In this document: piece after piece, positions 4,651 to 58,722 of the stretch
Numbering within the stretch: the stretch's first letter is position 1
Layout of the letters: each line of letters begins with the position of its first letter
From: Candidatus Pacearchaeota archaeon
GTDB lineage: Archaea; Nanobdellota; Nanobdellia; Pacearchaeales; GW2011-AR1
DNA: 60,209 nucleotides
Reading direction: 5' to 3'
NCBI GenBank assembly: GCA_023136775.1
Contig: JAGLQO010000003.1
Coordinates: forward strand, 1-60,209
The notes under the pieces: model-generated
What the model was told of the DNA's origin: nothing
What the model saw: only the letters and a program-made list of their open reading frames with translations
The model's database searches: none
Made by a program: the position numbers and the translations under genes

Positions 4651-4768
4651 CTGGAGCGTTAGCGATTAAATGGACAAGTCTTTCGAGCGGAATGAAATGG
4701 AGCGGTTATGAGTCGAATGAAGACGGAGTCGTAATGAGCGAATAAATATGAGAAACGAAGTTTCTCTA
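4651..4768 (-). repeat. Truncated, decayed long-form element (P4 hairpin plus 3' domain) immediately after the alaS stop
   Basis: Minus strand reads TAGAGAAACTTCGTTTCTCATATTTATTCGC...ACTTGTCCATTTAATCGCTAACGCTCCAG. This parallels copy B (AGGAGAACTTCGTTCTCATATTTTGCAGC...ACTTGGCTGTTCAATTGCGAAATAATTTTCGCTCCAAC). Confidence 0.55.
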
Positions 4769-9188: not shown

Positions 9189-9340
9189 ATTGACATTTTT
9201 TTCTGGTGAAAAAAATCGTCAGAGAAAATCCGCACAGGATTTTAGATTCCAGACCGCTTACCGTACATGCCGCAGACGGTCTGATATATTTAGGGAATTT
9301 GTTACAAATTCCCGTTATTCGGAGTGAATGCTATGTAACC
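9189..9340 (+). ncRNA. Stop-codon-proximal structured element, short form, copy A
   Basis: P1 TTGAC-A-T7-CTGGTG-A7-TC-GTCAG. P2 AAAATCC/GGATTTT. P3 CAGACCG/CGGTCTG around CTTACCG..CGCAGA. P4 GGGAATTTG/CAAATTCCC. Starts 3 nt after the rhomboid stop. Confidence 0.7.
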
Positions 9341-9476: not shown

Positions 9477-10055
9477 ATGAAAAAGAGTTGGTTGAAGGAA
9501 AATTATATTGCGTGTTTTAAATTTTTTAAAGAAAGTGAAAAACACATTTTATTTGCAACTTTATTATTTTTTATAACTGCATTTATTGGATTTTTATTTC
9601 CTATTTTTTTTAGAGAACAAATTATAGATATAATGACTCAAATGATTGGTCTTTTAGATGGAAAATCTGCGTTTGAACTCGTGTCATTAATTTTTTTCAA
9701 TAATATGAAAGCTAGTTTTATGGCGATGGTTCTTGGAATTGCTATTGGTATTTTTCCAATCTTTACGGGAATTGTTAATGGATATATACTTGGATTTGTT
9801 TCTAGGCAGGTAGTGGCTGTCGAGGGGATTTGGGTTATGTGGCAACTTCTTCCTCATGGAATTTTTGAAATCCCTGCAATTTTATTTTCAATTGGGATTG
9901 GGGTAAAAATTGGGACTGATTTATTTAAAGAAAAAGCGAAAGAAAAGCTTCGGAAAAATTTCAGAGAAGGGTTAAGGTTTTTTGTTTTTGTTGTGTTCCC
10001 GCTTTTACTTATTGCTGGGATTATTGAAGGATTACTAATAGCCATACTCGGCTAG
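9477..10055 (+). CDS. SpoIIM-like (DUF95) membrane protein
   Basis: TM-rich ORF. LLPHGIFEIPAILFSIGIG is typical of the stage II sporulation protein M family. Confidence 0.7.
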   Translation: MKKSWLKENYIACFKFFKESEKHILFATLLFFITAFIGFLFPIFFREQIIDIMTQMIGLLDGKSAFELVSLIFFNNMKASFMAMVLGIAIGIFPIFTGIVNGYILGFVSRQVVAVEGIWVMWQLLPHGIFEIPAILFSIGIGVKIGTDLFKEKAKEKLRKNFREGLRFFVFVVFPLLLIAGIIEGLLIAILG

Positions 10056-10122
10056 TTGGTAGTGGGTAGTTGGCAGTTGGTAGTAGGCAGTGAAAGACAT
10101 TGTTGCGTCGTTTTTCGACGCT
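10053..10122 (+). repeat. R-motif copy 1: G/T-rich degenerate short tandem repeats plus conserved CATTGTTGCGTCGTTTTTCGACGCT
   Basis: Shares 24 of 25 nt with 58684-58708 and is identical to 11701-11725. Hairpin GCGTCG-TTTTT-CGACGC followed by a T-rich run. Confidence 0.7.
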
Positions 10123-10150
10123 TTTGTATTAGAAGTGAATGCCATATAAC

Positions 10151-10224
10151 ATTTAAAAAAATTGATTTAGACTTTTTTGTTTTCCGTAATTATTCAAGAC
10201 CCAAGATTCTTTTCTTATATCTTC
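10151..10224. repeat. 74-bp perfect duplicate of the 3' end of the nre-like gene (partner 10448-10521)
   Basis: Identical string atttaaaaaaattgatttagac...cttatatcttc at both positions. The two copies bracket element copy B. Confidence 0.9.
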
Positions 10225-10230
10225 ATAATA

Positions 10231-10446
10231 TCAACATTTTTCCTGGTGAAAAAATCGTTGAGAAAATTCTGCAGGAATTTTAAATTCCGAACCGCTTACC
10301 GTCAAGGCCGCAGACGGTTCGATATAATTCTTTAGGAGAACTTCGTTCTCATATTTTGCAGCTGGCATTTTCTTAACGGGCGTTGCCCTAAAAATACACA
10401 GGCTGCCGACTTGGCTGTTCAATTGCGAAATAATTTTCGCTCCAAC
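10231..10446 (+). ncRNA. Structured element, long form, copy B
   Basis: P1 TCAAC/GTTGA. P2 AAAATTC/GAATTTT. P3 CGAACCG/CGGTTCG. P4 GAGAAC/GTTCTC. An extra 3' domain has hairpins GGGC-GTT-GCCC and GCGAAA-TAA-TTTTCGC. Confidence 0.7.
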
Positions 10447-10449
10447 AAT

Positions 10450-11649
10450 TTAAAAAAATTGATTTAGACTTTTTTGTTTTCCGTAATTATTCAAGACCCA
10501 AGATTCTTTTCTTATATCTTCCATGTTAATATCGATTCTAGTTTGCATATTTTTTATTGCGTCATCGATTGAGTCGAAATATTTTGGCTCGTTTTTGAAA
10601 GTTCTTCTGGCTGTTTCTCTTACTACTCCAACTCCTAGTGGTGCGTAATATTCTGCCCTGATTTCCCTGAAGATGAAAACTGTGGCTTGTCGTTTTATTT
10701 TTTCTAGGTATTCTGTTAGGGGAAGTCTCATTGCGTAATAACCGCCTGTGATGTTTGAGGCGTATTTTGTTCGACCTTTGAAAGATTCGTAATCTTGAGA
10801 AATAACAGTTTTATCTCCGACGTAAAAGTTTCCGGCTTTCCATGCTTCAATTGCGTCAAATGTAAAATATCCTGGAAGAAGTAAGGCTTCTATATAATTA
10901 CCGACGAAGTTTCCTGAGAAAAGCATTATTTGATTAATCTCTGGGTAGAATCTTATTTTTTCTAAATGTTGTTTTGATATTGTGTCGTCGGTTGCGGTGA
11001 TGCTCCATCTAGTTGGGACCATTCTTCTTCGAATTTTTTTACCGAGCAAACCGATGGATAATAATTTTTGTAGATGATCAACTTTTGTGTTTGATTTATA
11101 TAATTCCTTTAGGGCATCAGTTGCTTTGACGTCGTAGTCGCTGGTCAAATAATCAACTTTCTTTGAGACTTTTACGTTCTCTTCTAGGATTGCTTTTTTT
11201 ATTGGTGCGGGATTTGTCATCGGTCTAAAAACTGAGTCTGGGGTAAATTCCATTGTTGGTTTTCTTTTTAGAAAAATTTCTGTCGAGACTGGTTTTGAAG
11301 AAAGAGCCAATTCTTTTGTAACGGACTTTAACCTATCATCTATTTTGATATGGGATTTTGATTTGCCATAAATTAATTGTCCTCTTAATCTAAGTACATT
11401 TGCTATTGAGAAATTGCTTTTGCTCCACTCTTCGGCTGTTGCGAAATTTGAAACGTTGTCATTATCTTGCGGGGTTAAGATTCCGGAATTAATATAGGGA
11501 TAGCCAATTCTTCCTACAAAAAGTTCTGGGGCTGATTTTCCAGAGAAATGTAATTTTGGTTTTGGGGCGTTGTCAATAAATTTATTTAAAATCTTGCAAG
11601 GCTTTCCACACATTCCTTTTCCTTTGCATTTGATACATAGATTATCCAT
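10450..11649 (-). CDS. NreA-like protein (archaeal Nre family, DUF650/DUF651)
   Basis: N-terminal LCIKCKGKGMCGKPCKIL Cys cluster and about 400 aa length fit my memory of Nre. I use the ATG at 11649 because the upstream extension runs through repeat R2. Confidence 0.55.
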   Translation of the reverse strand: MDNLCIKCKGKGMCGKPCKILNKFIDNAPKPKLHFSGKSAPELFVGRIGYPYINSGILTPQDNDNVSNFATAEEWSKSNFSIANVLRLRGQLIYGKSKSHIKIDDRLKSVTKELALSSKPVSTEIFLKRKPTMEFTPDSVFRPMTNPAPIKKAILEENVKVSKKVDYLTSDYDVKATDALKELYKSNTKVDHLQKLLSIGLLGKKIRRRMVPTRWSITATDDTISKQHLEKIRFYPEINQIMLFSGNFVGNYIEALLLPGYFTFDAIEAWKAGNFYVGDKTVISQDYESFKGRTKYASNITGGYYAMRLPLTEYLEKIKRQATVFIFREIRAEYYAPLGVGVVRETARRTFKNEPKYFDSIDDAIKNMQTRIDINMEDIRKESWVLNNYGKQKSLNQFF

Positions 11650-12112
11650 GGGATAATCTGCTTGTAGTTTGTGGCTGATAGTTTGTGGTTCTTTCCAATG
11701 CATTGTTGCGTCGTTTTTCGACGCTATTTATTTTTCTGTTTTCAAGCCTTAGTTTAATTGAATTATTAATTATTTTGATTAGACTTGATAATTTTAGTCC
11801 TATTGATTGTATATCTTGATTTAACTTCTCAAATTGTTCGTTAGATATATAATTTAAATCTCTTGACATTAATAAAAAATTCTCACACTCTTTTAGGCTT
11901 CCCATTGCTATATGTAAAAATCTTAGAAAATCTTTGTCCGAGTTTCTTCCTGTGCCTTCTGCTATGTTTGCTGAAATACTCAGAGAGGCTCGTCTTAATT
12001 GTGAAGTTATAGAATACATTTCTTCTCTAGGGAAATTTTTTGTTATTTTATAAACTTCTTTCCCAAATTCAAAGGATAGCTTCCATGTTTGTAATTTTTT
12101 AAAATCCTGCAT
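11642..12112 (-). CDS. Four-helix-bundle protein (23S rRNA intervening-sequence protein / Avd-like, PF05635-like)
   Basis: SITSQLRRASLSISANIAEG and MGSLKECENFL are characteristic. The last ~30 codons read through repeat R2, so the true C-terminus is uncertain. Confidence 0.75.
   Translation of the reverse strand: MQDFKKLQTWKLSFEFGKEVYKITKNFPREEMYSITSQLRRASLSISANIAEGTGRNSDKDFLRFLHIAMGSLKECENFLLMSRDLNYISNEQFEKLNQDIQSIGLKLSSLIKIINNSIKLRLENRKINSVEKRRNNALERTTNYQPQTTSRLSHG
11665..11725 (+). repeat. R-motif copy 2
   Basis: TAGTTTGTGG repeated twice, then CATTGTTGCGTCGTTTTTCGACGCT. Confidence 0.7.
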
Positions 12113-12893: not shown

Positions 12894-13040
12894 GTTGGCT
12901 TTTTTTCTGGTGAAAAAAATACCAGGTGAAATCCGCAAAGATTTCTAGATTCCGAACCGCTTACCGTCACGCCGCAGACTGGTTCGATATATTTAGTGCG
13001 AATATTTATTCGCACGTTCTTGGAAGTGGATGTTATTTTA
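12894..13040 (+). ncRNA. Structured element, short form, copy C
   Basis: P1 outer TTGG/CCAG. P2 GAAATC/GATTTC. P3 CGAACC/GGTTCG. P4 GTGCGAAT/ATTCGCAC. Starts 4 nt after the stop. Confidence 0.65.
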
Positions 13041-17024: not shown

Positions 17025-17100
17025 TCTAAAGTGATACAATTATTGTTTATAAGTTTTTCTGTTTGTTGTTATTTTAAAGTGACACTGATTTAGAGAGAAA

Positions 17101-17335
17101 ACGGGGTTTGAGTGATTGAGGTGGCGGATTGTTGGAGCGAGAACTTGTTCGAGCGATGGGATATTCAAGACAGGGGAAACAAATTTTGGCTCGCGGATTT
17201 ATAGGATTTAATGTATTCAAGGTAGTGGAATGGGGGACAATTTTTGCTCACGGATTTTCACAGACACCTTCGGTGTTCACGGATTCAAGGCAATGATTTT
17301 GGGAATGTCAACAAAGGGGCAATTTTGTTTTGGAA
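17101..17335. repeat. Intergenic repeat array (GAGCGA module, CAGGGGAAACAAATTTTGGCTC module, CACGGAT-hairpin unit)
   Basis: 17123-17200 resembles 18097-18175. The unit 17246-17307 resembles 45661-45723. Confidence 0.7.
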
Positions 17336-17849: not shown

Positions 17850-17902
17850 AGTAAGATTAAACTTATTTAATATATAAATCTTCCTTTGTGTTAATTTTGA
17901 TA

Positions 17903-18250
17903 AATATTCAAGACAGGGGAAACAAATTTTGGCTCGTAGATTTTGGGGATTCAAGACAAGAAGACAAATAGCTCACGGATTTACACGGATGAGCTTGCCC
18001 ATTCACGGCATTCTCACAATATATAATTAAATAGGTTGGGTATATTTATTCAAGATACTAGGTTATTGGAGTGAGAACTTGTTCGAGCGATGAGGTGGAT
18101 GGATTGTTGGAGTGAAGATGGAATCGAGCGATGGGATATTTAAGATAGGGAAAACAAATTTTGGCTCACGGATTTACACGGATGGGCTTGCCCATTCACG
18201 GATTTTATTCCTAGGATTGTTGGAGTGAAGATGGAATCGAGCGATATTAA
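17903..18250. repeat. Intergenic repeat array (same modules as 17101-17335, two to three rounds)
   Basis: attcaagacaggggaaacaaattttggctc at 17906, with a variant at 18137. CACGGAT-hairpin units at 17971-18017 and 18164-18206. ggattgttggagtgaagatggaatcgagcgat occurs twice. Confidence 0.7.
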
Positions 18251-20959: not shown

Positions 20960-21186
20960 AAATTAAACAAGTTAAGTTTTTATATAAATATAGTGGTTGA
21001 CATTTTCGTTGATGTGAAAATTGTTGAGGGAAAATTGGGGGATTCCAGATTCCAAAAATTTTCGCAAGCAAATTGTGGAGTTTTTCTTTAAAAAATGAAT
21101 TTTCTATTCACGGCTTATTTAACCTTGTCATACAACCTATTAGAACTGTTATATAATTTTATAAAGTTATTTTATATCGAAGATAT

Positions 21187-30332: not shown

Positions 30333-30941
30333 ATGAAAAAGAACAAAAACAGGGGTAACACTATTTTACATGAGCTAAAACATCATTTGCCATTTACTTT
30401 AACTTCTAGTATAGCTGCTGGTATTTTGGTTGCAATTTTTTATTTAATTAATAAAACATTTTTTGTCGGTGTGGTATCTAATCTTTTTGAGATTATGCAT
30501 CCCGCCCATGTTTTTGTTTCAGCTATGGCAACTGCGGCCATTTATAATAAATATAAAAAATCTATTCCAAAATCTATCTTTATAGGAATGGTTGGGGCTA
30601 TTCTTATCGGAAGTTTAAGTGATGTGATTTTTCCATGGGTTGCTGGAAATTTATTTTCACTTCATACTCATTTTCATTTACCGATAATTGAAAAAACATT
30701 TTTTATTTTAGGAGTTGCTGGAATTGGGGCTGCGATTGGTTCAAAATGGAATTTGTTTAATGCAAGTCATTCCGTACATGTTTTTATTTCAATTTTTGCT
30801 AGCTTATTTTATTTATTAACATTTAGTGTTGAAATGAATCCATTGACGGTTATGCTAACTTCATTAATAATTTTTCTTGCTGTTTATATTCCATGTTGTA
30901 TAAGTGATATTATATTCCCTCTATTATTTGTAAAGAAATGA
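30333..30941 (+). CDS. His-rich multi-TM membrane protein
   Basis: 202 aa, about 6 TM segments. HELKHH, HPAH and HTHFH motifs. Confidence 0.5.
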   Translation: MKKNKNRGNTILHELKHHLPFTLTSSIAAGILVAIFYLINKTFFVGVVSNLFEIMHPAHVFVSAMATAAIYNKYKKSIPKSIFIGMVGAILIGSLSDVIFPWVAGNLFSLHTHFHLPIIEKTFFILGVAGIGAAIGSKWNLFNASHSVHVFISIFASLFYLLTFSVEMNPLTVMLTSLIIFLAVYIPCCISDIIFPLLFVKK

Positions 30942-31008
30942 ATTGACATTTTTTTCTGGTTCATACTCACCTAGTACACCACTCACGAGAAGCAGCGAAA
31001 ATGTCAAT
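30942..31008. repeat. Head-to-head ATTGACATTTT arms between convergent genes (copy H)
   Basis: aattgacatttttttctgg follows the + gene stop. The reverse complement of gaaaatgtcaatatt contains the TGA stop of the GH13 gene on the minus strand. Confidence 0.6.
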
Positions 31009-33022
31009 ATTGATTTACTTTTTTGAAAACTATTACTCCATATGGAGGGAGTATTGGCAGAACAATTTCTTTATCTAACAACTCAAAATTATTTGATGAA
31101 TTGACTTTTAATTTATCTGGATAACTAGCTAATCCAAATCCAGCATACTTTAATTTGTCTGAATTAAAAACAGTAATATATTCTTCACCATCTTTAATAC
31201 CGACGCTATAATCATAATGTTTCCAAGAAGACGTATTAATAACTATTATATATTTTGAGTCATCTCCTTTTCTCTCAATTACTAAAACTTTATTTTTATC
31301 ATCCACACTTAAAAAATTTCTATGTTTTACATTCTTTGGCCAAAAGGCAGAATCATCCATCAATAAATTTATATCTTTTTTATAATCCACAAGAGCCCGT
31401 GAAATTTCGTTAAAAGACTGAAACCATTCTATCGAAGAATTATGCTCAAAAGTTCCTGGTTGTAATAAAAATGTTTGAAGTAAATCAAGAGTTCTCCCTT
31501 CGCCGGCCAATGAAATTAAGGCCTCCATAACTTTTATTTTTCCAACTCCGTGAATGTGATTTGATTCTCCTCCTTCCATCATACAATTGTAAGCATAAGC
31601 TCCTGTACATCTGTTTTCCATCAAACCAGCTGCTGCATCATGATTATGAAAATCGGCTATTGTCGAATTTGACTTTCCCCAAACTTTTTCTTCAACAATA
31701 TTTCTGAACTTCCAAACAGAAATATTTTCGGAAGCATTAAACATATATTTTGTATGGAAATAATGAGTCATTCTTGATGAGTTATAAGCTGTACCCCCAA
31801 GTGCTCTTGAGTCACTATTAATTGGAGCAATCAACATTTTAGCATTATCATCATAAAAAAAATGAGCTTCATAATTAATTAAAGCAGCTGGATTAAAAGA
31901 ATAAATTGCTTGGTTTAATTCTCTTAAAAATTTTCTTCCATTTGGACGATCCTCTCCTTGTCCAGAATCGCCATATCTAATTATTCCGTCAACATTATCA
32001 ACCCTAAATCCATCTACGTGATAATATTTCATAAAATGAATACAACTGGAAATAAAAAAATCCCGAACATAAGCATTATCAAAATCAACTCTCATAGTCC
32101 CCCAAGAAGTCTCTTCTTTCATATATAATCTACGCTCATGTCCGTTTGACGAATTTTGTTTCTTCCATTGATGAAGTCCATGGTCAGCAGAACTTTGGCC
32201 AAAAATACTAAAATCCTTACTCGGCAAATGCCCAAGGACAAAGTCTCCTACGACTGCAATTTTATTTTTATGAAACATGTCAATCATGTAAGCGAAATCG
32301 TCAGGAGTTCCCCAGTTTTTTTGAACGGCAAATTGAAATGGAACTAAATATCTAAATTTCCAATTGTCCCCGTCAATACTCTGGGCAAATGGTAAAAACT
32401 GAACAGTGTTAAATCCTAAATTTTTTATTTCCTCAATCACTCCGCTCTCCGCTATAAATCTATACAAATTCTTATTGTCAATATCTTTTCCGCAAATATT
32501 ATTTTTATTCGCAAAATGCGCAACAAGTCCTGGCAAATCGGTTTGCATAATTTTTACAGAACGCTCAAATGTATTTACAAAATCAAACTTCGGAGAATAA
32601 GCTGACGGATCATTATAATCCCAAAAAATATTATTCCCAGAATCACTGAAAAGTGCACCAGCAGGATCTTGAATCATAAACTGACTCTTAGTCTTATTGT
32701 TGTGAACTAATAATTTATACTCGTCCTTATGTTTTACATCATCTAAATCTACATTCCCAATAACCGAATGTTGATCTTTTTTTAATTTGTATGTTTTTAA
32801 TTTTAAAATATCACTTTCCCAATTATTAAAATCTCCAACAACAAAGACATCTAAATCAGCATTATCAATTAAGACGTTAAATTTAATTTTAGAAGCAAAT
32901 CCATCTTCATCTCTGTCAATTACATTCGCACCATAATTGGAAACCCAATCTTTTAAATTATTTTTAGGTTCAGTATTTTCCGAATTAATTTCCCATTGGT
33001 ATTTATAATTGTCTAATTGCAT
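31004..33022 (-). CDS. GH13-family glycoside hydrolase (branching-enzyme/alpha-amylase-like)
   Basis: GH13 regions DGFRVDNVDG, NYEAHF and FHNHDA. The N-terminal beta-domain resembles CBM48. Confidence 0.8.
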   Translation of the reverse strand: MQLDNYKYQWEINSENTEPKNNLKDWVSNYGANVIDRDEDGFASKIKFNVLIDNADLDVFVVGDFNNWESDILKLKTYKLKKDQHSVIGNVDLDDVKHKDEYKLLVHNNKTKSQFMIQDPAGALFSDSGNNIFWDYNDPSAYSPKFDFVNTFERSVKIMQTDLPGLVAHFANKNNICGKDIDNKNLYRFIAESGVIEEIKNLGFNTVQFLPFAQSIDGDNWKFRYLVPFQFAVQKNWGTPDDFAYMIDMFHKNKIAVVGDFVLGHLPSKDFSIFGQSSADHGLHQWKKQNSSNGHERRLYMKEETSWGTMRVDFDNAYVRDFFISSCIHFMKYYHVDGFRVDNVDGIIRYGDSGQGEDRPNGRKFLRELNQAIYSFNPAALINYEAHFFYDDNAKMLIAPINSDSRALGGTAYNSSRMTHYFHTKYMFNASENISVWKFRNIVEEKVWGKSNSTIADFHNHDAAAGLMENRCTGAYAYNCMMEGGESNHIHGVGKIKVMEALISLAGEGRTLDLLQTFLLQPGTFEHNSSIEWFQSFNEISRALVDYKKDINLLMDDSAFWPKNVKHRNFLSVDDKNKVLVIERKGDDSKYIIVINTSSWKHYDYSVGIKDGEEYITVFNSDKLKYAGFGLASYPDKLKVNSSNNFELLDKEIVLPILPPYGVIVFKKVNQY

Positions 33023-38361: not shown

Positions 38362-41300
38362 TCATCCTATCACATACCAGGAAATACCATTACAGGCAAG
38401 AGTTACCCCCCCATAATTTGTAAAAGACAAATCAACACCATCTGGACATATTATTTTTTGAGTTCCACTTGCCTCATTATGTTCAATAATCATGGTATAA
38501 GATGGATGAGATTTATAAATATGAACTATTTGTCCATCAACACCATTAGCTAATCCTGCAATATATATATTTGCATCTGATGGACTAACTATAACAGAAT
38601 TCACTCCGCTTACATCTAATGCATCACTTGAAGCTGAGATTACCTTAACAGAAGAAGATATTGCCCCATTAACTTCTAGTTTTGAATGCGGATCTGTTAC
38701 TCCAATCCCCACATCCCCACCCATAATACACATAGAATTCGCCTGATTACAATTAACCCCATTCATATCATCCAATCCAATCGCAACAACATAATCAGCC
38801 CCTGCTTGGATTTCTCTTCCCATTGCTGTTGAATAATCCCCTGAAGCTATTGTATAGGCGCCCATTGCTGTTGAATAATCACCTGAAGCATTTGTAGTAC
38901 GCCCCATTGCTGTTGAATAACTCCCTATAGCATCTGTATTAGAACCCATAGCTACAGAAGAAGTACCTGAAGCTGTTGTATAGGCGCCCATTGCTGTTGA
39001 GGTAGAACCTAAAGCAGTTGTCCAAAAACCCATTGCTGTCGAATAAAATCCTGAAGCATTTGTTCGATACCCCATTGCTGTTGCAGATGGACCCGAAGCA
39101 GTTGTATCCCCACCCATCGCCACAGCATAATCACCTGTCGCACTATTCAAAGACGAACCAATTGTCGCCGCCCCACCAGAACTTACCTCTACATCTAATT
39201 TAGCAGAAGGAGTTGTTGTTCCAATTCCAACTCTATTATTAGTTTGATCAATAACTAAAGTATTAGAATCAAAGTTAAGATTACTAGTTAAAGTCCAAGC
39301 TCCACCCGTTGGCATTCTAATAGATTCTATATTTCCACTTGGGAAAAAACTAGTTGCTGAATCTCCAGTTAATGCAGAACCTCCTTCTGAAGATGAACCT
39401 GCATAGTTTCCTGTTGTGTCGGTTCCAAGTGCAACTGAATTTGCTCCTATAGCTATATTCCCAATAGTTCCTGTCACATCTCCTCCAACTCCAACTCCTT
39501 GAACGTCAGTTGCTGTTTCTATCACATCTGTTGTGACATGATTATAAGCAATATTTCCATAGTCTCCTCTGTATGCTGTTGTGCTTGTAGTTCCTAGATT
39601 TACTCCAACTGTGTCTGCTCCTAAATTTACGGTTCCAACACTTCCAGCTGTTCCTGCATGACTTGCAACATTTAAAGTTGGAGTCCCTGTAGTTCCACCA
39701 CCAGTAAGCCCAGTTCCTGCCGTAACGCCTAAAATATCTCCTCCATCATTTGCATCTGTTCCACAGCTAAATTCATTTGTTCCTGCAGTATATAATAATT
39801 TTCCAGTTGTACAATCTGGAATTATTTTAGCTTCCCAATTATTAACACCATTTCCAATCATTATAGCGTCTTCAATACTTGCTGAAAGTCCTGTTCCTCC
39901 CCTAGCAATTGCTAATGTTCCTGTTGTTAATTTTGTTACTGCTAGGTTTGGAATATCATTTGCCACTAAACTTCTAAAGTTTGGAGAACCAGCTGACCCA
40001 CTTGGAGAAGCAAATACTAAGTTTGCTGCTTGACTAACTAGGGTCGCCGTCAAAGTTCCAGAAGTTGTTACTGGAGAATTTGCGACATTAAAGATTGAAG
40101 GCATTGAAAGTCCTACACTTGCAACGTCTCCTGCTCCTCCAATAGCGTCAACTATCCAGGTAAATCCTGCAGTTGCTGAATCATAACTTAAAATATAATT
40201 ATCAGTTGGAGTGTTTGTAGCTTCTAAATCTATTTCTTGAATTGTATTGTCTAAAATTTCTGCAGTTGCTACTCCGCCTGTTGCAATCTCAGTAGTACCA
40301 ATTGAGTCTTGAACAATTTCATTATTACCGATACTGTTTGCTGTTACCGCAATATCTGGGATTGGACCAGTTCCAAATGTAACTGTTATTGCGTTTCCTC
40401 CAGTTACTTCGGTTAAATCTCCCGAGCCAGTTCCAACTGTTGAAATATCTTTACAATTTATACCGTTTTCATCACAATATTCTGTAGCTCCGACTTGACC
40501 TTCAACATCTAATTTTAAAGTTTCAGATGGGGTAGTTGTTCCTATTCCTACCCTGCTGCTGGTTGTTATATTTCCAGATGAATTTTCCCAAAGACTTGTT
40601 ACTGAAATGTCTGCATATAGGGTGTCCGCGTATGATTCATTCCAACTTTCATTGTCTCCCGCTACTGCGATATCTGCATATAGGGTATCTGCGTATGTTT
40701 TGTTAAATGTGGCGTATGTGTCGTTCCAGTAATTTAATGGGTTAAATATTGAATAAAATAATGTTTCGGCCAAAGATTGATTCCATGATTGATTATCTGC
40801 TCCAGAAATTCCCGTGAGTAAACTTCCGTTTCCTATAAAATAATCTGCTGTGATATTATATCCTGTTGCGTTCAAATTTTCGTCGAATATGATTCCGCCA
40901 ACGTAAACATTTTGAGCCATAAAAGAATAGGGGCTTGTTGTTAAATTCATTCTTGGTGCCATTTCGCTGTCGCCTTCAATTGTAATTCCTAGATAATATT
41001 GTTCGGAGAAATTAAGTCCTGTTGCGTCTAAAATTACGTCGTAGAAAATTCCATCAGTAATTGTCACATCTCTAACAGAATTCCAGAGTGAAACTCCGCC
41101 CGTATAAGAATCATAAATATTAAAAGTAAATTGAAATGTTCCGTTCATTGAACCAGATGAATTGGAGAGTTTACCATGAATGTTAAAAGTTTGAGGAACA
41201 GCGTCGGTTATTGGAGTTGGGTCCACTATGTAATCGAATTCAACTGAATTTCCTATAATTTTCAAATCAAAAGTGTCTTCATTTCCTACTAGAGAAGTTA

Positions 41301-42675
41301 AATAAATTTTATGAGTGGCTTCTTGTTCTACGTTTCTGAATCTTGCGATTTCTGTTGTCTCGTCTTCTATGTAAACTATTATGTCGCTAATCCCTTCAGA
41401 CTTTGCGTGGATTGTTATATCTTTAGTATTGTCAAGTTGCTTTTCAAATCTAACTCTTATATATTCGTTTTCATGGATTGGGTTGGTCCAAATATTATCT
41501 TGACTAAAAACTTCATTGTAAATGTTGGTGATAAATTCTTTATTAACTCCGAGATGTTCTGCTTGTGTTATGTAAATTATTTCGTAAATCTGTGCTGACA
41601 AATGTGGAACAATCCACTCTATATAATCGACATAACCGTCGTTGTCAAAATCATAAGGTATAAATTCGACTTGCTTTCTTGCTCGGTTGACTTTAACGCT
41701 TGGACTCAAATATTTTTTTACAACTGAATCCAAATCTTCTTCTTGCGATATAACTTGTCCAGTAATGAGTATGGTTATGTTTTCTTCCGTTTGGTTTTCG
41801 ATTAGAACTTCATTGTCTTCTTCGGTTGGAATTTTTATAGTTACATTGGTTATGTTTTCTTCAATAATTTCTTCTGTTTGAACATCTATAACTTCTGGAA
41901 TTGTTATTGGAATATTATCTTCGATTGGGTCTTCGTACCAGTATAATTTTAAATTGGGGTCATTCATTTTAATTTGCATTCCTTCTACTACTGAATATGC
42001 TAAAATTTCTGTATAATTTAATTCGCTTGGAGCTGAGACAATAATTCTTTTACCGTTGGTTAGAGCTGTTTCATTTGCTATTGGGGCTTTTGTATAATAT
42101 TCAATTGCAACTTCAGTTATTTCTTCTGAGATGTCTTTAATTTCTATGATTGTTTCATTTGGGGTCTCTATAATATTTTCTTCAATTTCTTCAGATACAA
42201 CCTTGCCAGTAATAGTTAGACTGGATAAATAATTCATAAATCTGGTTAAAATCCCTGTTTTTCTATCAATATTAAAAGTTACTTTTCCTGTCAAGGCAGT
42301 ACCTTTAATTATGGTTTTTCTATCGGTGTTTTCGACTACGGTCTTGTATTCTTTAACTTTTTTTACGGCTTTTGTTACCTCTTCGTTTGTTAAGATAGAA
42401 ATATTTTCTGCACCTTTTGGTAATTTTATATTGATATTTTTATCTTTAGATTCTATTTTTTTAATCCACTTAACTGGTCTTCCGATTACTGCCTTATATT
42501 GCAAAGTGGATGTGATTGGAATTTCTTCTGTTTGGTTTTCTTCAGCTTGAATGAAACTTATATTAGAAAGTAAAAGTAATATAATAATTCCGATAAAAGA
42601 GAATATTGATATATTAGTTTTAACTACCCTTTTTTCCAAATTAACTTTCTTAGATGAAACACTCCCTTTTTTCAT
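38362..42675 (-). CDS. Giant (1437 aa) surface protein with tail-fibre-like and YadA-head-like (xSTAMG) repeats
   Basis: Signal/anchor at the N-terminus. GIGTTTPSxxLDVEG motif occurs twice. At least 8 tandem YSTAMGxxTxASG repeats near the C-terminus. Confidence 0.75.
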   Translation of the reverse strand: MKKGSVSSKKVNLEKRVVKTNISIFSFIGIIILLLLSNISFIQAEENQTEEIPITSTLQYKAVIGRPVKWIKKIESKDKNINIKLPKGAENISILTNEEVTKAVKKVKEYKTVVENTDRKTIIKGTALTGKVTFNIDRKTGILTRFMNYLSSLTITGKVVSEEIEENIIETPNETIIEIKDISEEITEVAIEYYTKAPIANETALTNGKRIIVSAPSELNYTEILAYSVVEGMQIKMNDPNLKLYWYEDPIEDNIPITIPEVIDVQTEEIIEENITNVTIKIPTEEDNEVLIENQTEENITILITGQVISQEEDLDSVVKKYLSPSVKVNRARKQVEFIPYDFDNDGYVDYIEWIVPHLSAQIYEIIYITQAEHLGVNKEFITNIYNEVFSQDNIWTNPIHENEYIRVRFEKQLDNTKDITIHAKSEGISDIIVYIEDETTEIARFRNVEQEATHKIYLTSLVGNEDTFDLKIIGNSVEFDYIVDPTPITDAVPQTFNIHGKLSNSSGSMNGTFQFTFNIYDSYTGGVSLWNSVRDVTITDGIFYDVILDATGLNFSEQYYLGITIEGDSEMAPRMNLTTSPYSFMAQNVYVGGIIFDENLNATGYNITADYFIGNGSLLTGISGADNQSWNQSLAETLFYSIFNPLNYWNDTYATFNKTYADTLYADIAVAGDNESWNESYADTLYADISVTSLWENSSGNITTSSRVGIGTTTPSETLKLDVEGQVGATEYCDENGINCKDISTVGTGSGDLTEVTGGNAITVTFGTGPIPDIAVTANSIGNNEIVQDSIGTTEIATGGVATAEILDNTIQEIDLEATNTPTDNYILSYDSATAGFTWIVDAIGGAGDVASVGLSMPSIFNVANSPVTTSGTLTATLVSQAANLVFASPSGSAGSPNFRSLVANDIPNLAVTKLTTGTLAIARGGTGLSASIEDAIMIGNGVNNWEAKIIPDCTTGKLLYTAGTNEFSCGTDANDGGDILGVTAGTGLTGGGTTGTPTLNVASHAGTAGSVGTVNLGADTVGVNLGTTSTTAYRGDYGNIAYNHVTTDVIETATDVQGVGVGGDVTGTIGNIAIGANSVALGTDTTGNYAGSSSEGGSALTGDSATSFFPSGNIESIRMPTGGAWTLTSNLNFDSNTLVIDQTNNRVGIGTTTPSAKLDVEVSSGGAATIGSSLNSATGDYAVAMGGDTTASGPSATAMGYRTNASGFYSTAMGFWTTALGSTSTAMGAYTTASGTSSVAMGSNTDAIGSYSTAMGRTTNASGDYSTAMGAYTIASGDYSTAMGREIQAGADYVVAIGLDDMNGVNCNQANSMCIMGGDVGIGVTDPHSKLEVNGAISSSVKVISASSDALDVSGVNSVIVSPSDANIYIAGLANGVDGQIVHIYKSHPSYTMIIEHNEASGTQKIICPDGVDLSFTNYGGVTLACNGISWYVIG

Positions 42676-42732
42676 ATAAAATAAAAACAAGTTTAATATA
42701 AAAGGATTGCTGTGAAGAATTATTTTAAATGT

Positions 42733-45384: not shown

Positions 45385-45420
45385 GTATATACACCGTGTG
45401 TATATTATATAAGGATTGTG

Positions 45421-45730
45421 GGGGTTTATTTTTGGAATCTGGGGGAAGGCAAATTGCTCGCGGCACCCTCACAAATATATGGTAGATATTGGTTGGGGCA
45501 TTCTAATTTTGGGGATTTTGGGGATTTAAGAACTGGAATAGCCACTAACACCTTCGGTGTACACTAACGCAATAAATTGCGCGCACGAACCTGCGGTGCT
45601 TTTTGTTGATATTTTGATTTTGGCTAAATTTTGCTTGAGAATGTTTTGTTAATTTTAATTGCTCACGGATTTGCACAGATGCCTAACGGCATTCACGGAT
45701 TGAGGACAATGATTTTGAGAGTGAATTTCT
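45421..45730. repeat. Intergenic repeat array related to 17.1-18.2 kb arrays
   Basis: atctgggggaaggcaaattgctcgcgg resembles agacaggggaaacaaattttggctcgcgg. The CACGGAT-hairpin unit at 45661-45723 is also present. Confidence 0.6.
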
Positions 45731-45834
45731 TGTTAGAATAATGACGAGGAGTGGGTGCACTGGTAAATATTTGAACAAAAGTGTTAAATACGGTTTATTC
45801 TTTGTTTTTATATCCGTTAAAAGGGAGGTGAAAA

Positions 45835-47653: not shown

Positions 47654-47803
47654 ATTGACAAAATTTTCTGGTGAAAATTTTCGTCAGGTATCGTCCACAC
47701 AGGACTCTAATTTCCGAACCGCTTACCGCACAGGTCGCAGACGGTTAGATATATGAGGGAATTTGTTCCAAATTCCCGTTTTGGGGAATGGATGTTATAT
47801 GAC
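47654..47803 (+). ncRNA. Structured element, short form, copy E
   Basis: P1 inner AAAATTTT/AAAATTTT. P2 GTCC/GGAC. P3 CGAACCG/CGGTTAG (one mismatch). P4 GGGAATTTG/CAAATTCCC. Starts 4 nt after the tfs stop. Confidence 0.65.
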
Positions 47804-47921
47804 TTTTAGAATTAGTTAAATAATTTTTATATATTAACTGAAGTTACTGGAATCACGCATGTGATTTATTTGAAACTCGCGTCGCAATAATTAATTTTGT
47901 TGGTATTTTGCTATGTAACTT

Positions 47922-48731
47922 TTAGAATTTATTAATCTCTATAATCTTGTGACCTGCAACGCCTAAGTTGTGAACTTCTGTCTTGCCAATTTTTGTATGA
48001 CCTTCGGATTCGTGAATATGTCCACAAAAAACATATTTTGGCTGAAACTTTTTGATGTAATTTAAGATAACTTTACTTCCAGCATGTTTGCCATTTCTAG
48101 AACTTGGAGCGAAAGTATTGTTCACTTTGTCTAAATATCCAAATGGAGGTTGATGACAAACTAAAATATCTAGTTTTCCAAAATTCTTTAAAATTCTTTT
48201 TGTTTTTTCTGTTTCTTTTTTTGCTTTAGATATCATATACTCATCAGTATATCCAAGCTCTTTGTTTTGACAAGAATCAAAAAACCATTCTAAAAATCCA
48301 ATTCTAAGCCCATCGATATTTCTAACCGCATTTCTAACAAGATAAAAATCTTCAATTTTATTAAGGCTATCCCTAAGTCTAGGCAATTTCAGTCCAAACC
48401 TTTTTTCTTCTTTATTAATAGAAGAATTGTAAATCATGCTCCCGCCTGTGTTCCCCATTATAGTATAAGTCGGAGCAAATTTACAAGTATGCTTCAAAAC
48501 ATTAACCATGGAATCATGAATTTCCACAATAGCAAATTTATTATCTTTGCCTGTGTACTTTATTTCTTTTAATCCAGCATCTCTAAGCTTTTTGTTCTCC
48601 CAAAATCTATTACGGGCAAAATCAGCTTTGCCGACATCGCCAGTAACCAAAATTAAATCAATACCTTTAAATGGAATCTTTTTAATTTTAGAAATCTCCC
48701 CATGAGGATCGCCAATCGCACAAATCTTCAT
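47922..48731 (-). CDS. Calcineurin-like metallophosphoesterase
   Basis: GDPHG, GDVGK, GNTG, HQPP and GHIHE motifs. Confidence 0.8.
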   Translation of the reverse strand: MKICAIGDPHGEISKIKKIPFKGIDLILVTGDVGKADFARNRFWENKKLRDAGLKEIKYTGKDNKFAIVEIHDSMVNVLKHTCKFAPTYTIMGNTGGSMIYNSSINKEEKRFGLKLPRLRDSLNKIEDFYLVRNAVRNIDGLRIGFLEWFFDSCQNKELGYTDEYMISKAKKETEKTKRILKNFGKLDILVCHQPPFGYLDKVNNTFAPSSRNGKHAGSKVILNYIKKFQPKYVFCGHIHESEGHTKIGKTEVHNLGVAGHKIIEINKF

Positions 48732-51278: not shown

Positions 51279-51291
51279 TTAAAAATAAAAA

Positions 51292-51362
51292 TGACTCCAC
51301 CAGGAATCGGACCTGGGCCTTTTCGGTGTAAGCGAAATAGTCTACCATTAGCTTATGGAGTC
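51292..51362 (-). tRNA. tRNA-Val (anticodon UAC)
   Basis: Folded by hand. Acceptor GACTCCA/TGGAGTC. Anticodon arm TTTCG-CTTACAC-CGAAA. T arm CCAGG-TCCGATT-CCTGG. 4-nt variable loop. No encoded CCA. Confidence 0.85.
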
Positions 51363-51383
51363 ATATAATGAATTCATAAGCTT

Positions 51384-51843: not shown

Positions 51844-51904
51844 ATTAATAAAAAATCATGTTAAGATTTAAACTTATCTAATAAATATAACAAAAGTTGT
51901 GTTA

Positions 51905-52191
51905 ATCAATGGAGCGGAAATTATTTCCGCGATTAAATAGCCAAGTTGCAGTCTGTGTTTTTTTAGGGCGGATGCCCGTTAATCTCACGTAAAAGTGTAC
52001 CCTTTAGATAGGCAATCTGAGATTGCATTTTAATCGGGCAAAAAAACCAGCTGCAAAATATGAGAATCGAAGATTCTCCTAAAAACCTATATCAAATTAT
52101 CTGCGACGCGAGTCGGTAAGTAATTTGGGATCTAGGACTTGCCTCTCGAAGACCAACCTGACGATTTTTTTCACCAGAAAAAAATGTCAAT
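51905..52191 (-). ncRNA. Structured element, long form with an extra nested-helix insertion, copy F
   Basis: P1 is identical to copy A over 34 nt. P3 CAAATTA/TAATTTG. P4 GAGAATC/GATTCTC. 3' domain hairpins GGGC-ATCC-GCCC and GCGGAAAT-A-ATTTCCGC. Starts 3 nt after the stop of 52195..52869. Confidence 0.7.
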
Positions 52192-52194
52192 TGC

Positions 52195-52869
52195 TCATAT
52201 CATCTTTTTCATTTCTTCAATTTCTACGGAAGAAATTGCTGCACCTTTAAACTTTACACCGTAAAGCAAAGCATCTAAAAGATTTTTATCTTTTTTTATT
52301 GGGATTAATCCCTTCTTGTATGCCACAAATAACAACTCTGCAGATCTAATGTATTTGAATTGTTTTAGATCTTTTAGTAATTCCAAATTTGAATCTAAAG
52401 GGGTATGTAATTTTCTCTCCATCATATTTTCTAAATTTTCTGGAGCTTCTGTTAACATACGAGTTGTCCTTTCATCTATTACTATAACATTATCACAACC
52501 GCAAAGATTTGAAAACGCTAAGCATGCAGCTTCTCCTTCATGAATAATTTTTATTTTTTCTCCAGTAGCGGTTGTTCTTAAAGCTCCATTTGTAATTTTC
52601 AAAATTTTCTTAACTTCTTTGTCCATTTTTTCTTGAGAAATAATTTCTGTTGACATTTTAAAAATTCCACGGTTAATCATTTCATTAACTTGGAGGGCTT
52701 CTAATTTATACTTTTTAATTTTCATTGGTCTATCGACTACTTCATATCTAACCCTTGGAGTCAAAACAAACTCTCCATCAAAAACTTCTTTTAATTTTTC
52801 AATTACTGGAAGCATTCCATTCATCGTTAAAGAAATAATAGGACCTGCGTCAAATATTAAATATTTCAT
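52195..52869 (-). CDS. PIN-like domain protein
   Basis: MKYLIFDAGPIISL... and IHEGEAACLAFS...VIVIDERT suggest a PIN-like fold. The ATG at 52869 lies 1 nt after the upstream stop. Confidence 0.5.
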   Translation of the reverse strand: MKYLIFDAGPIISLTMNGMLPVIEKLKEVFDGEFVLTPRVRYEVVDRPMKIKKYKLEALQVNEMINRGIFKMSTEIISQEKMDKEVKKILKITNGALRTTATGEKIKIIHEGEAACLAFSNLCGCDNVIVIDERTTRMLTEAPENLENMMERKLHTPLDSNLELLKDLKQFKYIRSAELLFVAYKKGLIPIKKDKNLLDALLYGVKFKGAAISSVEIEEMKKMI

Positions 52870-52870
52870 T

Positions 52871-53431
52871 TTATCCGAAAATGTCCTCCGCAATTTTTAC
52901 CCTTTTTGCAATCGGCATACTGATTGCTACTTTTGAATCTCCGATGGAAGACTGTCCAATATAAGAAGACAAATCCCAAAGACTTATCCCTAATAACTCT
53001 GCTGTTTTTTCCGTCGATAAACCATGCTCATATAATTTGAAAGCTTTATTTATTTCAGCCTTTCTAAACACATCTTTAATGTACCGACCAAGGTCACCAG
53101 AAATTTTATTTAATGAGTTCCTGATTCTTCCAAGATATATTCGAGCGTTATCTACATCTTCTTTTTCCAAAGCTTTTATCACTAGATCTAAATTTTTAGA
53201 AAGTGATTTTTCAAATTCTACCCAACCTTCCATTTTTCTGTAATGCTCACGTTCTAAAACTTTTCCTATAGAATAAATTAAAACTGCCACGACAATATTA
53301 TCGGCATCTTGGGAAATTGTTGCAGAGTGTACTGTTTGTCCAGAAAGTATTTTTAATTCGTGGGATCTATCATCTCCAATTAATTTTCTGGCTTCACGAA
53401 GTATCCTCAAAATATTATCAATCTCTTTCAT
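52871..53431 (-). CDS. HTH-containing hypothetical protein
   Basis: C-terminal GLSTEKTAELLGISLWDLSSYI helix-turn-helix. Confidence 0.5.
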   Translation of the reverse strand: MKEIDNILRILREARKLIGDDRSHELKILSGQTVHSATISQDADNIVVAVLIYSIGKVLEREHYRKMEGWVEFEKSLSKNLDLVIKALEKEDVDNARIYLGRIRNSLNKISGDLGRYIKDVFRKAEINKAFKLYEHGLSTEKTAELLGISLWDLSSYIGQSSIGDSKVAISMPIAKRVKIAEDIFG

Positions 53432-53481
53432 TTTACCATAAGTAACTCAACTTATTTAAAGCTATGCTGACTTTGAATTTT

Positions 53482-53865
53482 ATGAAAATTTTACTTGATA
53501 CAAATTTTATTTTAACTTGTGCAAAGAACAAATTGGACTTTGGAGAAATTGTGAATGAGATAACTAGCGAGCCTGTTGAATGGATTGTTCTTCAGGATGT
53601 TTTGAATGAACTCGGGACCCTTAAGGACAGAGGGGGGATGAAGACTGCGGACAAGCAAGCCGCTGAGCTTGGGTTTGAATTGCTTCAACTTGTGAAGCCA
53701 GAGGTCATTGAGGTTAGTGGACGTAATCCTAACGTGGATATAAAAATTGTTAATTACATAATGGATAAAGATATTGTTCTTGCGACGATGGATAAAAATT
53801 TAAAATCTAGAGTTAAAAATAAAATTTTGACAATTCGCGGGAAGAATAATTTAGAACTTATTTAA
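53482..53865 (+). CDS. Fcf1/Utp24-type PIN-domain nuclease
   Basis: MKILLDTNFIL...VLATMDKNLKSRV. An alternative ATG is at 53464. Confidence 0.7.
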   Translation: MKILLDTNFILTCAKNKLDFGEIVNEITSEPVEWIVLQDVLNELGTLKDRGGMKTADKQAAELGFELLQLVKPEVIEVSGRNPNVDIKIVNYIMDKDIVLATMDKNLKSRVKNKILTIRGKNNLELI

Positions 53866-55309: not shown

Positions 55310-55380
55310 ATATAAAAAACCAAAAATTGATTTATAAAGCTTAGCACGAAAAATCTTGAGAAATAAACAACCCATCGTTC

Positions 55381-55900
55381 GCTGAGGCTCACTTCAAAGC
55401 TCGCTGCGGGATATTTCTAAACTCGGGACAATTTCAACTGCCCAACCTTCCGACCTTGATTCTCAACATATCTTTTAACATCATCTAGTCCCCGACCATC
55501 GCCAACAGTATCAATATGTCCACCATCGCTCCAGAATTCGCCACCCCACAGTTCTTCCTTCAGCTTCGGGAATTTTTTAAAAATCTGAATTGCCAAAATA
55601 CTTTTGCAAATTTGCATAATTCTTGACGGTGAATTCTTTGGAGCACTTTCAACAACAATATGAATATGATCATCTTCATGTCCCAATGCATCAAACCAAA
55701 GATAATATCTCTTGGAAATTCCACGACAAATTTCTTTCATAAAATCAAAAACGTCGTCGGTGATTAAATCCGGCCTATACTTTACAACGAAGACCATGTG
55801 ATATCGGATCCTATACGAACAATGACTAGCCTTTCTAACTTTCATAAAAAAACAAACTTCAAAACCTAGTTAAGCTTATCGCAGCAAGCTGCGGGGTATT
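55381..55900 (-). mobile_element. IS200-like element (tnpA only) with similar subterminal sequences at both ends
   Basis: Both flanks carry AATA(T/C)CCCGCAGC in direct orientation. The 5' flank forms CGCAGC-TT-GCTGCG. Confidence 0.7.
55417..55845 (-). CDS. tnpA: IS200/IS605-family Y1 (HUH) transposase
   Basis: 142 aa. YHMVFVVKYR, HUH motif DHIHIVV and catalytic-Tyr region VKRYVENQG. Confidence 0.9.
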   Translation of the reverse strand: MKVRKASHCSYRIRYHMVFVVKYRPDLITDDVFDFMKEICRGISKRYYLWFDALGHEDDHIHIVVESAPKNSPSRIMQICKSILAIQIFKKFPKLKEELWGGEFWSDGGHIDTVGDGRGLDDVKRYVENQGRKVGQLKLSRV

Positions 55901-56130
55901 CACCCAGTGAGAAATAATTTAAACTCTTAGTGCTTAGGGAAATTATGAAAACTAATTTAGAGAAAATTTTAATTAAAGAATTCTGCGAAAAACTACCTTT
56001 CAATTGGGCTCCGATTGAAAAGAATGGAATCTGTAGAATTCCAAATGATTACTGTATATATTGTAAAGAATTTTTTAAAATATAATTTACGAAAAATCAA
56101 ATATATACTTTAATCAATAAAAAATATAGT

Positions 56131-58543: not shown

Positions 58544-58625
58544 ATAGAATAAACATTATGTTTTTTTATAAATGTAGAGGTAAATCCTTTGGATTTACGG
58601 TAGGGGTAATTCTGCGGAATTTACT

Positions 58626-58708
58626 GGTCTGGGGTGGCGGGTCTGGGGTGGCGGGTCTGGGGTGGCGGGTCTGGGGTAGAAAACATTGTTGCGTCGTTTG
58701 TCGACGCT
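58626..58708 (+). repeat. R-motif copy 3: 14-mer GGTCTGGGGTGGCG x3.7 plus CATTGTTGCGTCGTTTGTCGACGCT
   Basis: Perfect tandem 14-mers at 58626-58677. The conserved motif is at 58684-58708. Confidence 0.85.
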
Positions 58709-58722
58709 TTTGTTTTTGTGTT

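Follow-up and report, generated by a model that had tools for sequence, protein, structure and literature searches.

A strongly folded, insertion-bearing copy of a dispersed intergenic repeat family behind a PIN gene cluster of a cold-seep archaeon

Introduction

Does an intergenic locus with a strong fold, in which variable outer helices surround a conserved core, represent a large functional RNA or a copy of a repeat? This question is raised by a locus of 287 bases (copy F) in a stretch of 60,209 nucleotides, referred to here as the window, which lies at the end of a 162.6-kb cold-seep metagenomic scaffold. The genes of the window are archaeal (TFS, Nre, PolB, CDC48; GC 29-35%), with the closest named homologues found in Nanoarchaeota and Pacearchaeota MAGs. 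Copy F had been read as a long form of a large functional RNA, with variable peripheral helices on a conserved core.

Two PIN-type genes are located at 52195-53865 of the window (DUF3368-like, 52195-52869, minus strand; PIN_9, 53464-53865, plus strand), together with a 186-aa gene without an assigned function that overlaps the DUF3368-like gene. This cluster is probably a toxin-antitoxin locus, and copy F is inserted directly behind it.

Results

Copy F and the extent of the inserted DNA

All strings quoted for copy F in the original prediction are present in the DNA, and the locus can be divided as follows (5' to 3' on the minus strand).

52191..51905, minus: copy F, 287 bases
52195..52200, minus: ATATGA at the 5' junction, which provides the TGA stop of the upstream PIN-like (DUF3368) gene
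52158..52190, minus: P1, UUGACA-U7C-UGGU-GA7-UCGUCAG
52135..52157, minus: P2 equivalent, divergent and without a clean hairpin
52128..52134, minus: single-stranded junction UAGAUCC, conserved; UAGAUUCC in most copies
52093..52127, minus: P3, CAAAUUA/UAAUUUG (DNA arms CAAATTA 52127-52121 and TAATTTG 52099-52093)
52120-52100, minus, inside P3: invariant CUUACCG (52120-52114), variable loop ACUCGCGU (52113-52106) and invariant CGCAGA (52105-52100)
52088..52093, minus: conserved GAUAUA junction
52062..52079, minus: P4 hairpin, GGAGAAUC-UUCG-AUUCUC, of the long-form type and 1 bp longer than in copy B
51948..52054, minus: long-form inserted domain; closing helix GCAGCUGG-U7 (52054-52040) with A7-CACAGACUGC (51965-51948), apical hairpin GGGC-AUCC-GCCC inside 51982-51966
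51983..52039, minus: nested block of 57 nt, hairpin GCAAUC-UCA-GAUUGC plus alternative pairings
51910..51947, minus: tail-like AACUUGGCUAUUUAAUC, homologous to the short-form tail, then hairpin GCGGAAA-UAA-UUUCCGC and UCCA
51849..51909, minus: 3' part of the F insert, beyond the end first assigned to copy F

The predicted identity of P1 between copies F and A was borne out over 34/34 nucleotides (52191-52158 vs 9189-9222). P3 is indeed re-coded yet paired, since 4 of its 7 pairs are changed on both sides relative to copy A and all of them pair, and it encloses CTTACCG and CGCAGA (52120-52114 and 52105-52100) as described, separated by an 8-nt loop that reads ACTCGCGT in the DNA. Homology of the 3' domain with copy B likewise holds, at 97/114 identical positions (85%) once the extra block is taken out. 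The existence of that block was correctly predicted, but its size of 70-80 nt was not: it measures 57 nt (52039-51983), while copy F exceeds copy B by 73 nt overall. The complementary segments said to be nested within it are all present, namely GCCCGATTAA (52039-52030) with TTAACGGGC (51982-51974), AATCTCA (52024-52018) with TGAGATT (51987-51981) and the hairpin GCAATC-TCA-GATTGC (52026-52012). However, they overlap one another and the GGGC/GCCC hairpin, and are thus alternative pairings as opposed to one nested set.

A 1250-nt contig of a related genome (flanks ~85% identical) skips 51849-52200 exactly. The DNA missing from that genome amounts to 352 nt (52200-51849), and the inserted DNA therefore runs ~56 nt past the 3' end originally given for copy F. 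At the empty site the PIN-like stop codon and the ATG of the zinc-ribbon gene are 1 nt apart. The ATATGA hexamer occurs again at 51845-51840, on the other side of the insert, making it a possible target duplication. The 3' part of the insert contains a second tail-like/TATA-like stretch, CAACUUUUGUUAUAUUUAUUAG (51899-51873), placed ~30 nt before the start codon (ATG) of the zinc-ribbon gene, which encodes 45 aa.

Copy F belongs to a family of about 30 copies

A covariance model built on P1-P3 was used together with BLAST to find copies of the family. The six window copies A-F score 94-120 bits (copy F, 93.8 bits), and the model has no match in 766 kb of control (unrelated) DNA and relatives' DNA. 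Besides copy F, the window contains the following members and fragments.

9189..9340, plus: copy A, short form, 4 nt past the rhomboid stop codon
10231..10447, plus: copy B, long form without the 57-nt block
12895..13040, plus: copy C, short form with a fully re-coded P4
34249..34402, plus: copy D, short form, top of P1 changed from UC/GA to AG/CU
47655..47806, plus: copy E, short form, P1 changed from UUU/AAA to AAA/UUU
~47830-47935: decayed partial copy after E
30941..31010, plus: P1-only fragment, AATTGACATTTTTTTCTGGT...AAAATGTCAAT, between convergent genes

Four further copies were identified in sister contigs, G (L009), H (L144), N (L156) and a truncated E (L149), so that 10 or more copies have been sequenced. 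The core has a read depth of ~1657 vs ~50 on the flanks in run X2 and of 153 vs ~5 in run X1, and this ~30-fold excess over single-copy flanks corresponds to about 30 copies per genome equivalent. The elements are 150-350 nt long and have no conserved ORF; a peptide from spurious ORFs across the core (...RFRTAYRxGRRRFDI...) had no match in 5.8 billion predicted proteins. The copies are 60-90% identical to each other rather than near-identical, and so give no sign of a very recent burst.

A degenerate relative (20997-21095, plus strand, 24 bits) has P1-like and AGAUUCC motifs and lacks CUUACCG/CGCAGA. A strong TATA-like box of archaeal type (TTTTTATATAAATA) precedes it by ~15-20 nt, and a T-run closes it, an arrangement suggesting that it may be an independently transcribed small RNA.

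A four-helix core maintained by compensatory changes

A core of ~150 nt with four helices (P1-P4) is found in every copy, with compensatory substitutions in the helices and invariant motifs (UGGU, UAGAUUCC, CUUACCG, CGCAGA, GAUAUA) in the loops and junctions. Two alignments supported the claim that the core is conserved and that compensatory changes preserve its helices. The first was made with MAFFT from 7 short forms, with P1-P4 written by hand, and is independent of the covariance model. Here 95.6% of cells pair, against 31-59% when the partners are slid; double-sided changes affect 17/40 pairs, and none of five measures is attained by any shuffle (0/500). The second, model-fitted alignment has 96.9% of cells paired and 13/25 pairs changed on both sides. 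Within P1, 8/14 pairs are changed on both sides: the outer 4-5 bp and the inner 8 bp covary around the invariant UGGU loop, and UGAC/GUCA is re-coded to CAAC/GUUG in copies B, H and N. P2 reads GAAAUCC-ACACA-GGAUUUC in other copies, from which the corresponding region of F departs. A tertiary pairing of UAGAUUCC with GGAGU of the tail was considered and rejected, as it works in copies A, D and E and fails in G, H, B and F.

The calculated fold of copy F has an energy of -82.3 kcal/mol, compared with -61.9 +/- 4.8 for shuffled sequences (z = -4.2). The opposite strand folds equally well (z = -4.8), and the fold consequently does not separate selection at the level of RNA from selection at the level of single-stranded DNA. 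The choice of strand from folding energy was dropped for this reason, and the counts of G-U versus A-C are too few to assign a strand. When the insertion of F is folded together with its closing arm, the energy is -17.2 kcal/mol vs -10.7 +/- 2.7, with 7/500 shuffles as good.

Such a core could belong to a structured RNA that acts in trans (an RNP component, a guide-like RNA or a new ribozyme) and is encoded by a family of many gene copies, with the genomic spread being secondary. Copy-specific function would then come from the peripheral helices or from the variable loop flanked by CUUACCG and CGCAGA. The covariation of four helices and the invariance of loop and junction nucleotides are in line with this, as are the variable loop of 5-8 nt held in a fixed frame, the long-form additions that keep pairing too, and the degenerate relative at 20997-21095 behind its TATA-like box TTTTTATATAAATA. 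However, no conserved promoter is found upstream of the copies, most of which lie 1-5 nt past a stop codon in unrelated sequence, and archaeal RNA polymerase would be expected to terminate at the T7 tract with which P1 opens on its 5' side. We regard this explanation as unlikely, and the distribution of the copies presented below also weighs on it.

The long form is a short form with an inserted domain

In the short forms H and N, GUGCAACUUUGGCUAUG follows P4 immediately, whereas copy F has it as CUGCAACUUGGCUAUU past the extra domain; the long-form junction UGCAACUUUGGCUAUG is also carried by H and N. The position of GUGCAACUUUGGCUAUG indicates that the long form is a short form with an inserted domain. 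By sequence comparison, this is a hairpin domain placed between P4 and the tail, with the 57-nt block of F nested inside it.

A search of metagenomes for further long forms yielded more copies, on contigs from four cold-seep runs. These skip 56-58 nt exactly at the extra block of F. The block is absent from copy B and at least 3 other long-form copies, and is carried by at least 1 other copy. Failure of the 3' domain shared by B and F to covary in additional homologues had been named as the observation that would overturn the prediction, and the additional long forms do covary. The changes comprise GGGC/GCCC to GGAC/GUCC on one unitig (at approximately three-copy depth) and A-U to G-C in P4 of a third long-form copy (one 3.1-kb contig). 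Between B and F, an A-U to U-A swap occurs in the U-run/A-run helix, and P4 and the terminal hairpin each differ by complete base pairs, gained on both strands. The second copy of the 57-nt block has one extra base on each arm of its hairpin, a compensating change. Taken together, these linked changes demonstrate covariation of the long-form 3' domain, modest in extent.

Parts of the element also occur by themselves: the P1 module is found alone at 30941 and the tail module alone at 10131-10150, and the tail motif UUUUGGGAGUGG is common to this family and another repeat family. The decayed copy behind E has the tail of E plus 16 nt of its flank, which suggests a local duplication. The variable 'peripheral helices' of copy F are better read as nested insertions of hairpin modules in a repeat element.

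Directly behind the AlaRS stop codon, at 4744-4766 (minus strand), lies a stand-alone hairpin, GAGAAAC-UUCG-UUUCUC followed by AUAUUU, which hardly differs from the long-form P4 with its 3' flank.

Genomic setting and turnover between strains

Copies A, C, E and F and the P1 fragment at 30941 start 1-5 nt past a co-directional stop codon. Copies D, H and N adjoin divergent gene starts, H being antisense between S27e and eIF2alpha. The neighbouring genes are unrelated, and no particular gene is associated with the copies.

In relatives, the equivalent sites were found to be empty. The rhomboid and SpoIIM genes overlap by 4 nt in genomes with 60-73% identical SpoIIM, and SpoIIM and Nre converge and overlap in the closest of these (L139/L140), the neighbour or the spacer being different in other relatives. 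No family element was found at the A and B sites in any genome with 60-73% identical SpoIIM. A comparison at shorter evolutionary distance is provided by contig L156, the flanking genes of which are 98.4-98.5% identical to those of the window. It lacks copy A and has a different repeat (second repeat family) at that site; it has a third repeat family at the site of copy B; and it carries the family copy N where the window has a third kind of repeat and no family copy. The two strains thus have different elements at three consecutive intergenic sites. Similarly, L009 is 99.8% identical to the window over 3.6 kb and then carries copy G, at a site where the window is without a copy. Searching with the zinc-ribbon and TFS proteins revealed no additional strain variants.

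The second repeat family occurs in the window at 10056-10130, 11660-11733 and 58600-58716, in L144 at 7690-7740 and in L156 at 44-114. It consists of G/T-rich short tandem repeats (GTTGGTAGT..., GGTCTGGGGTGGCG four times) followed by ACATTGTTGCGTCG-TTTTT-CGACGC and a T-run, and its 3' part looks like a hairpin terminator. The third repeat family (window 17100-17330, 17900-18250 and 45400-45740; L156 780-947) has the layout ATTCAAGACAG...GGCTCACGGATTTACACGG...hairpin...TTCACGG...CAATGATTTTGGGAGTG, with the tail motif UUUUGGGAGUGG at its 3' end. Repeats of another kind, with a 42-nt period, are found at 38777-39137 (six overlapping 151-nt copies, 66-72% identical); they lie within a 1442-aa ORF (38362-42690, minus strand) that resembles a giant surface-protein gene with YadA-head repeats.

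Depth is zero in both X1 and X2 over 47808-47993, which comprises the decayed copy after E and a metallophosphatase 3' end, and is ~50x in X2 on the left flank. This suggests a further strain-level structural difference beside an element.

Gain, loss and replacement of copies between strains with 98.4% identical flanking genes argue against genes for a trans-acting RNA, as do the restriction to one lineage in the searches made, the lack of association with a particular gene and the lack of an Rfam family. The position of the copies could instead point to a cis-acting gene-end cassette that is kept by the host as bidirectional terminator, mRNA 3' stabiliser and outward promoter, and is duplicated by recombination instead of by transposition. 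Consistent with such a role, the five copies or fragments A, C, E, F and 30941 lie 1-5 nt past a co-directional stop, P1 gives T6-T7 on both strands in most copies, the DNA inserted at F closes with a TATA-like box ~30 nt before the next ATG, and the shared tail and 16-nt flank of E and its decayed neighbour suggest local duplication. A cassette of this kind is nevertheless distinctly unlikely: H, N and D adjoin divergent gene starts, with H antisense in the S27e-eIF2alpha operon, P1 of copy E has only T4, the elaborate core is needless for termination, and relatives have overlapping genes and no element at all.

Searches for relatives and for signs of transposition

In the window, Rfam at gathering thresholds identified only tRNA-Val, and a permissive Rfam cmscan of copies F, A and B (including HEARO) returned only noise at <=18 bits. 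ARAGORN identified neither a tRNA nor a tmRNA at the elements; its only hit, tRNA-Val at 51291-51363, led us to reject a tRNA, tmRNA or tRNA-like reading of the hairpin-UCCA end. Scans for core motifs in GTDB representative genomes, JGI metagenomes and IMG/VR produced only high-GC bacterial or chance matches, none of which was confirmed by the covariance model, and a 15-mer from the long-form domain had >117 chance matches in IMG/VR. No family member was found in ~100 kb from eight related genomes or contigs. Within these searches (GTDB, JGI, IMG/VR, proteins, relatives) the family was not found outside one lineage.

Several likenesses seen by eye were rejected, as they were inconsistent across copies or contradicted by Rfam: words shared with hammerhead or hairpin ribozymes (UGAC/GUCA, CUGGU, AUAU), a bulge-helix-bulge splice motif in P3, integron attC sites and the ORB boxes of archaeal origins.

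Terminal inverted repeats were looked for by inspection of the F and A inserts, where nothing at the 3' end is complementary to the 5' end (GCAATTGACATTTTTTTC), and by a repeat search, which returned only matches between copies and no terminal inverted repeats. The 5' flanks of the elements (GAAGC, GGTAA, AAAAC, GAGCA, AATGA) have no common motif. The flanking repeats are ATATGA at F and 74 nt at B; the single case of F does not make a rule. The 74-nt direct repeat that brackets copy B is perfect (10151-10224 and 10448-10521); it duplicates the final 24 codons of the Nre gene together with the stop codon and is far longer than usual target duplications. An ATGAA target duplication for copy A looked exact against relatives, and was rejected when L156 was found to share 47 nt upstream of SpoIIM without carrying A.

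A source of mobility could be the resident IS200/IS605-type element, if the family consisted of its non-autonomous (PATE/REP-like) derivatives, moved as folded single-stranded DNA by the Y1 (HUH) transposase. This IS200-like element has 556 nt and encodes TnpA only (126-aa Y1 transposase; window 55362-55917, minus strand). It is inserted after TTATT and ends in ...GTTGTTTATT; a second copy on scaffold_5354 / L144 (~9881-10436) is 99.8% identical, giving at least two copies, and the element looks active. Y1 transposases recognise hairpins in single-stranded DNA, which would fit the similar folding of both strands of F, and 5/6 window copies share one orientation. When the boundaries of the IS were set from its two copies, however, its ends proved dissimilar to the elements: local alignment to seven elements on both strands found only a T-run (best z = 2.7). 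Moreover, the IS sits 3' of TTATT whereas the elements have no conserved 5' flank, and they lack its CCGCAGC hairpins. An IS200/IS605 origin was rejected on these grounds, and we consider it highly improbable.

With respect to known classes, the family resembles MITEs in being small (<~600 bp), non-coding, multi-copy and dispersed. Ends in common with an autonomous transposon were not found, the IS200-like element being the only transposon in ~90 kb. As with large functional ncRNAs of the OLE, GOLLD, ROOL and raiA type, there is a conserved, covarying fold; occurrence in many lineages with a characteristic gene context is not seen, the ~30 copies lying beside unrelated genes. A strain-variable distribution combined with compensatory upkeep of the fold, as known for bcr1, is found in the family.

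Discussion

Copy F is a strongly folded, long and insertion-bearing copy of a dispersed intergenic repeat family. The inference of a large functional RNA from its pattern of conservation was not supported: the family has about 30 copies, which are absent from orthologous sites or swapped between strains, share modules with other repeats and were found in one lineage only in the searches made. For copy F, a small structured mobile element is the more probable reading, ahead of a unique large functional RNA. In full, we propose, with a probability of about one half, that it is a lineage-specific, non-autonomous, modular structured repeat of a DPANN archaeon (Nanoarchaeota/Pacearchaeota-like) from cold-seep sediment.

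Under this proposal the elements would be non-autonomous and would spread or be exchanged as DNA, through a trans-acting activity or recombination. At gene ends they would be co-transcribed with neighbouring genes, and selection on the fold would act on the transcript. P1 places oligo-T on both DNA strands, and its sequence (U7-loop-A7) is probably an oligo-T terminator of the archaeal type that also supplies a hairpin for the 3' end. A protein would recognise the surface formed by the invariant loops, and the additional helices of F would be tolerated nested insertions as opposed to functional expansion segments. Counting against a mobile repeat are the absence of terminal inverted repeats, of a consistent target duplication and of a mobilising protein (~90 kb examined), as well as a four-helix core with invariant loops that is more than a terminator or stabiliser needs.

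A further reading, which we think improbable, is that the core with its invariant UGGU, CUUACCG...CGCAGA and GAUAUA motifs is a new class of active DPANN RNA, for example a self-processing or protein-recruiting one that spreads via an RNA intermediate. The core would then be a prokaryotic counterpart of SINEs or retrozymes, the hairpin-UCCA 3' end of the long form would be a priming or recognition site, and target-primed insertion would have left the variable flanking repeats (6 nt at F, 74 nt at B) as its footprint.

The closest described analogue of the proposed mobile repeat is bcr1, and more loosely the ERIC and Correia MITEs and the BIME/BOX mosaics. In the Bacillus cereus group, bcr1 is a dispersed, strain-variable and transcribed repeat whose fold is kept by compensatory changes, and it is regarded as a co-transcribed mobile sequence of a special class (PMC3184786). 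Both bcr1 (~155 bp, intergenic) and the archaeal family are small, non-coding and multi-copy, have a multi-hairpin fold and vary in distribution between close strains. They belong to different domains of life and their sequences show no similarity; a regular 5-bp direct repeat accompanies bcr1, whereas none is established for the archaeal family, the core of which has four helices with invariant loops and exists as a short and a long form. ERIC/IRU, Correia and other bacterial MITEs are intergenic and co-transcribed, with promoter or terminator side effects and strain-variable sites (PMC3184786). In size, intergenic location and strain-variable sites, ERIC/IRU and Correia elements are similar to the archaeal family. 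Wilson and Sharp in 2006 are said to have described longer forms of ERIC too, arising from internal insertions. Terminal inverted repeats and short target duplications are the defining features of MITEs; the archaeal family has no terminal inverted repeats and no consistent target duplication, and is an ordered series of separate hairpins instead of one long palindrome. BIME and BOX elements (E. coli, Streptococcus pneumoniae) share with it the recurrence of modules in varied combinations at gene ends. Its modules are longer, however, without homology to theirs, and its P1-P4 core is a fixed, ordered and covarying unit. The family is thus unrelated in sequence to bcr1, ERIC, Correia and BIME/BOX, and falls outside the inverted-repeat definition of MITEs.

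The guide RNAs of mobile elements, namely IscB HEARO/omega RNA, TnpB omega RNA and IS110 bridge RNA, are likewise structured RNAs of 150-300 nt that are present in many copies and travel with mobile DNA. In contrast to these, the archaeal family is conserved in its loops and not in guide-flanking stems, and has no Rfam match; no IscB, TnpB or IS110 gene lies beside any copy in the ~90 kb examined.

These observations carry a warning for the interpretation of intergenic conservation, in that covariation and 'variable peripheral helices' alone do not suffice to distinguish housekeeping RNAs from structured repeats that are selfish. The genomes of DPANN archaea are tiny and densely packed, with genes that overlap, and here such a genome tolerates ~30 copies of an elaborate folded element in addition to at least two other repeat families. 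The turnover of elements between strains with flanking genes less than 2% different offers a natural system in which to ask how minimal genomes create and police intergenic DNA, and the elements may show how gene ends gain terminators and promoters. If the core binds a protein or is catalytic, it would represent a new class of archaeal RNA or mobile element.
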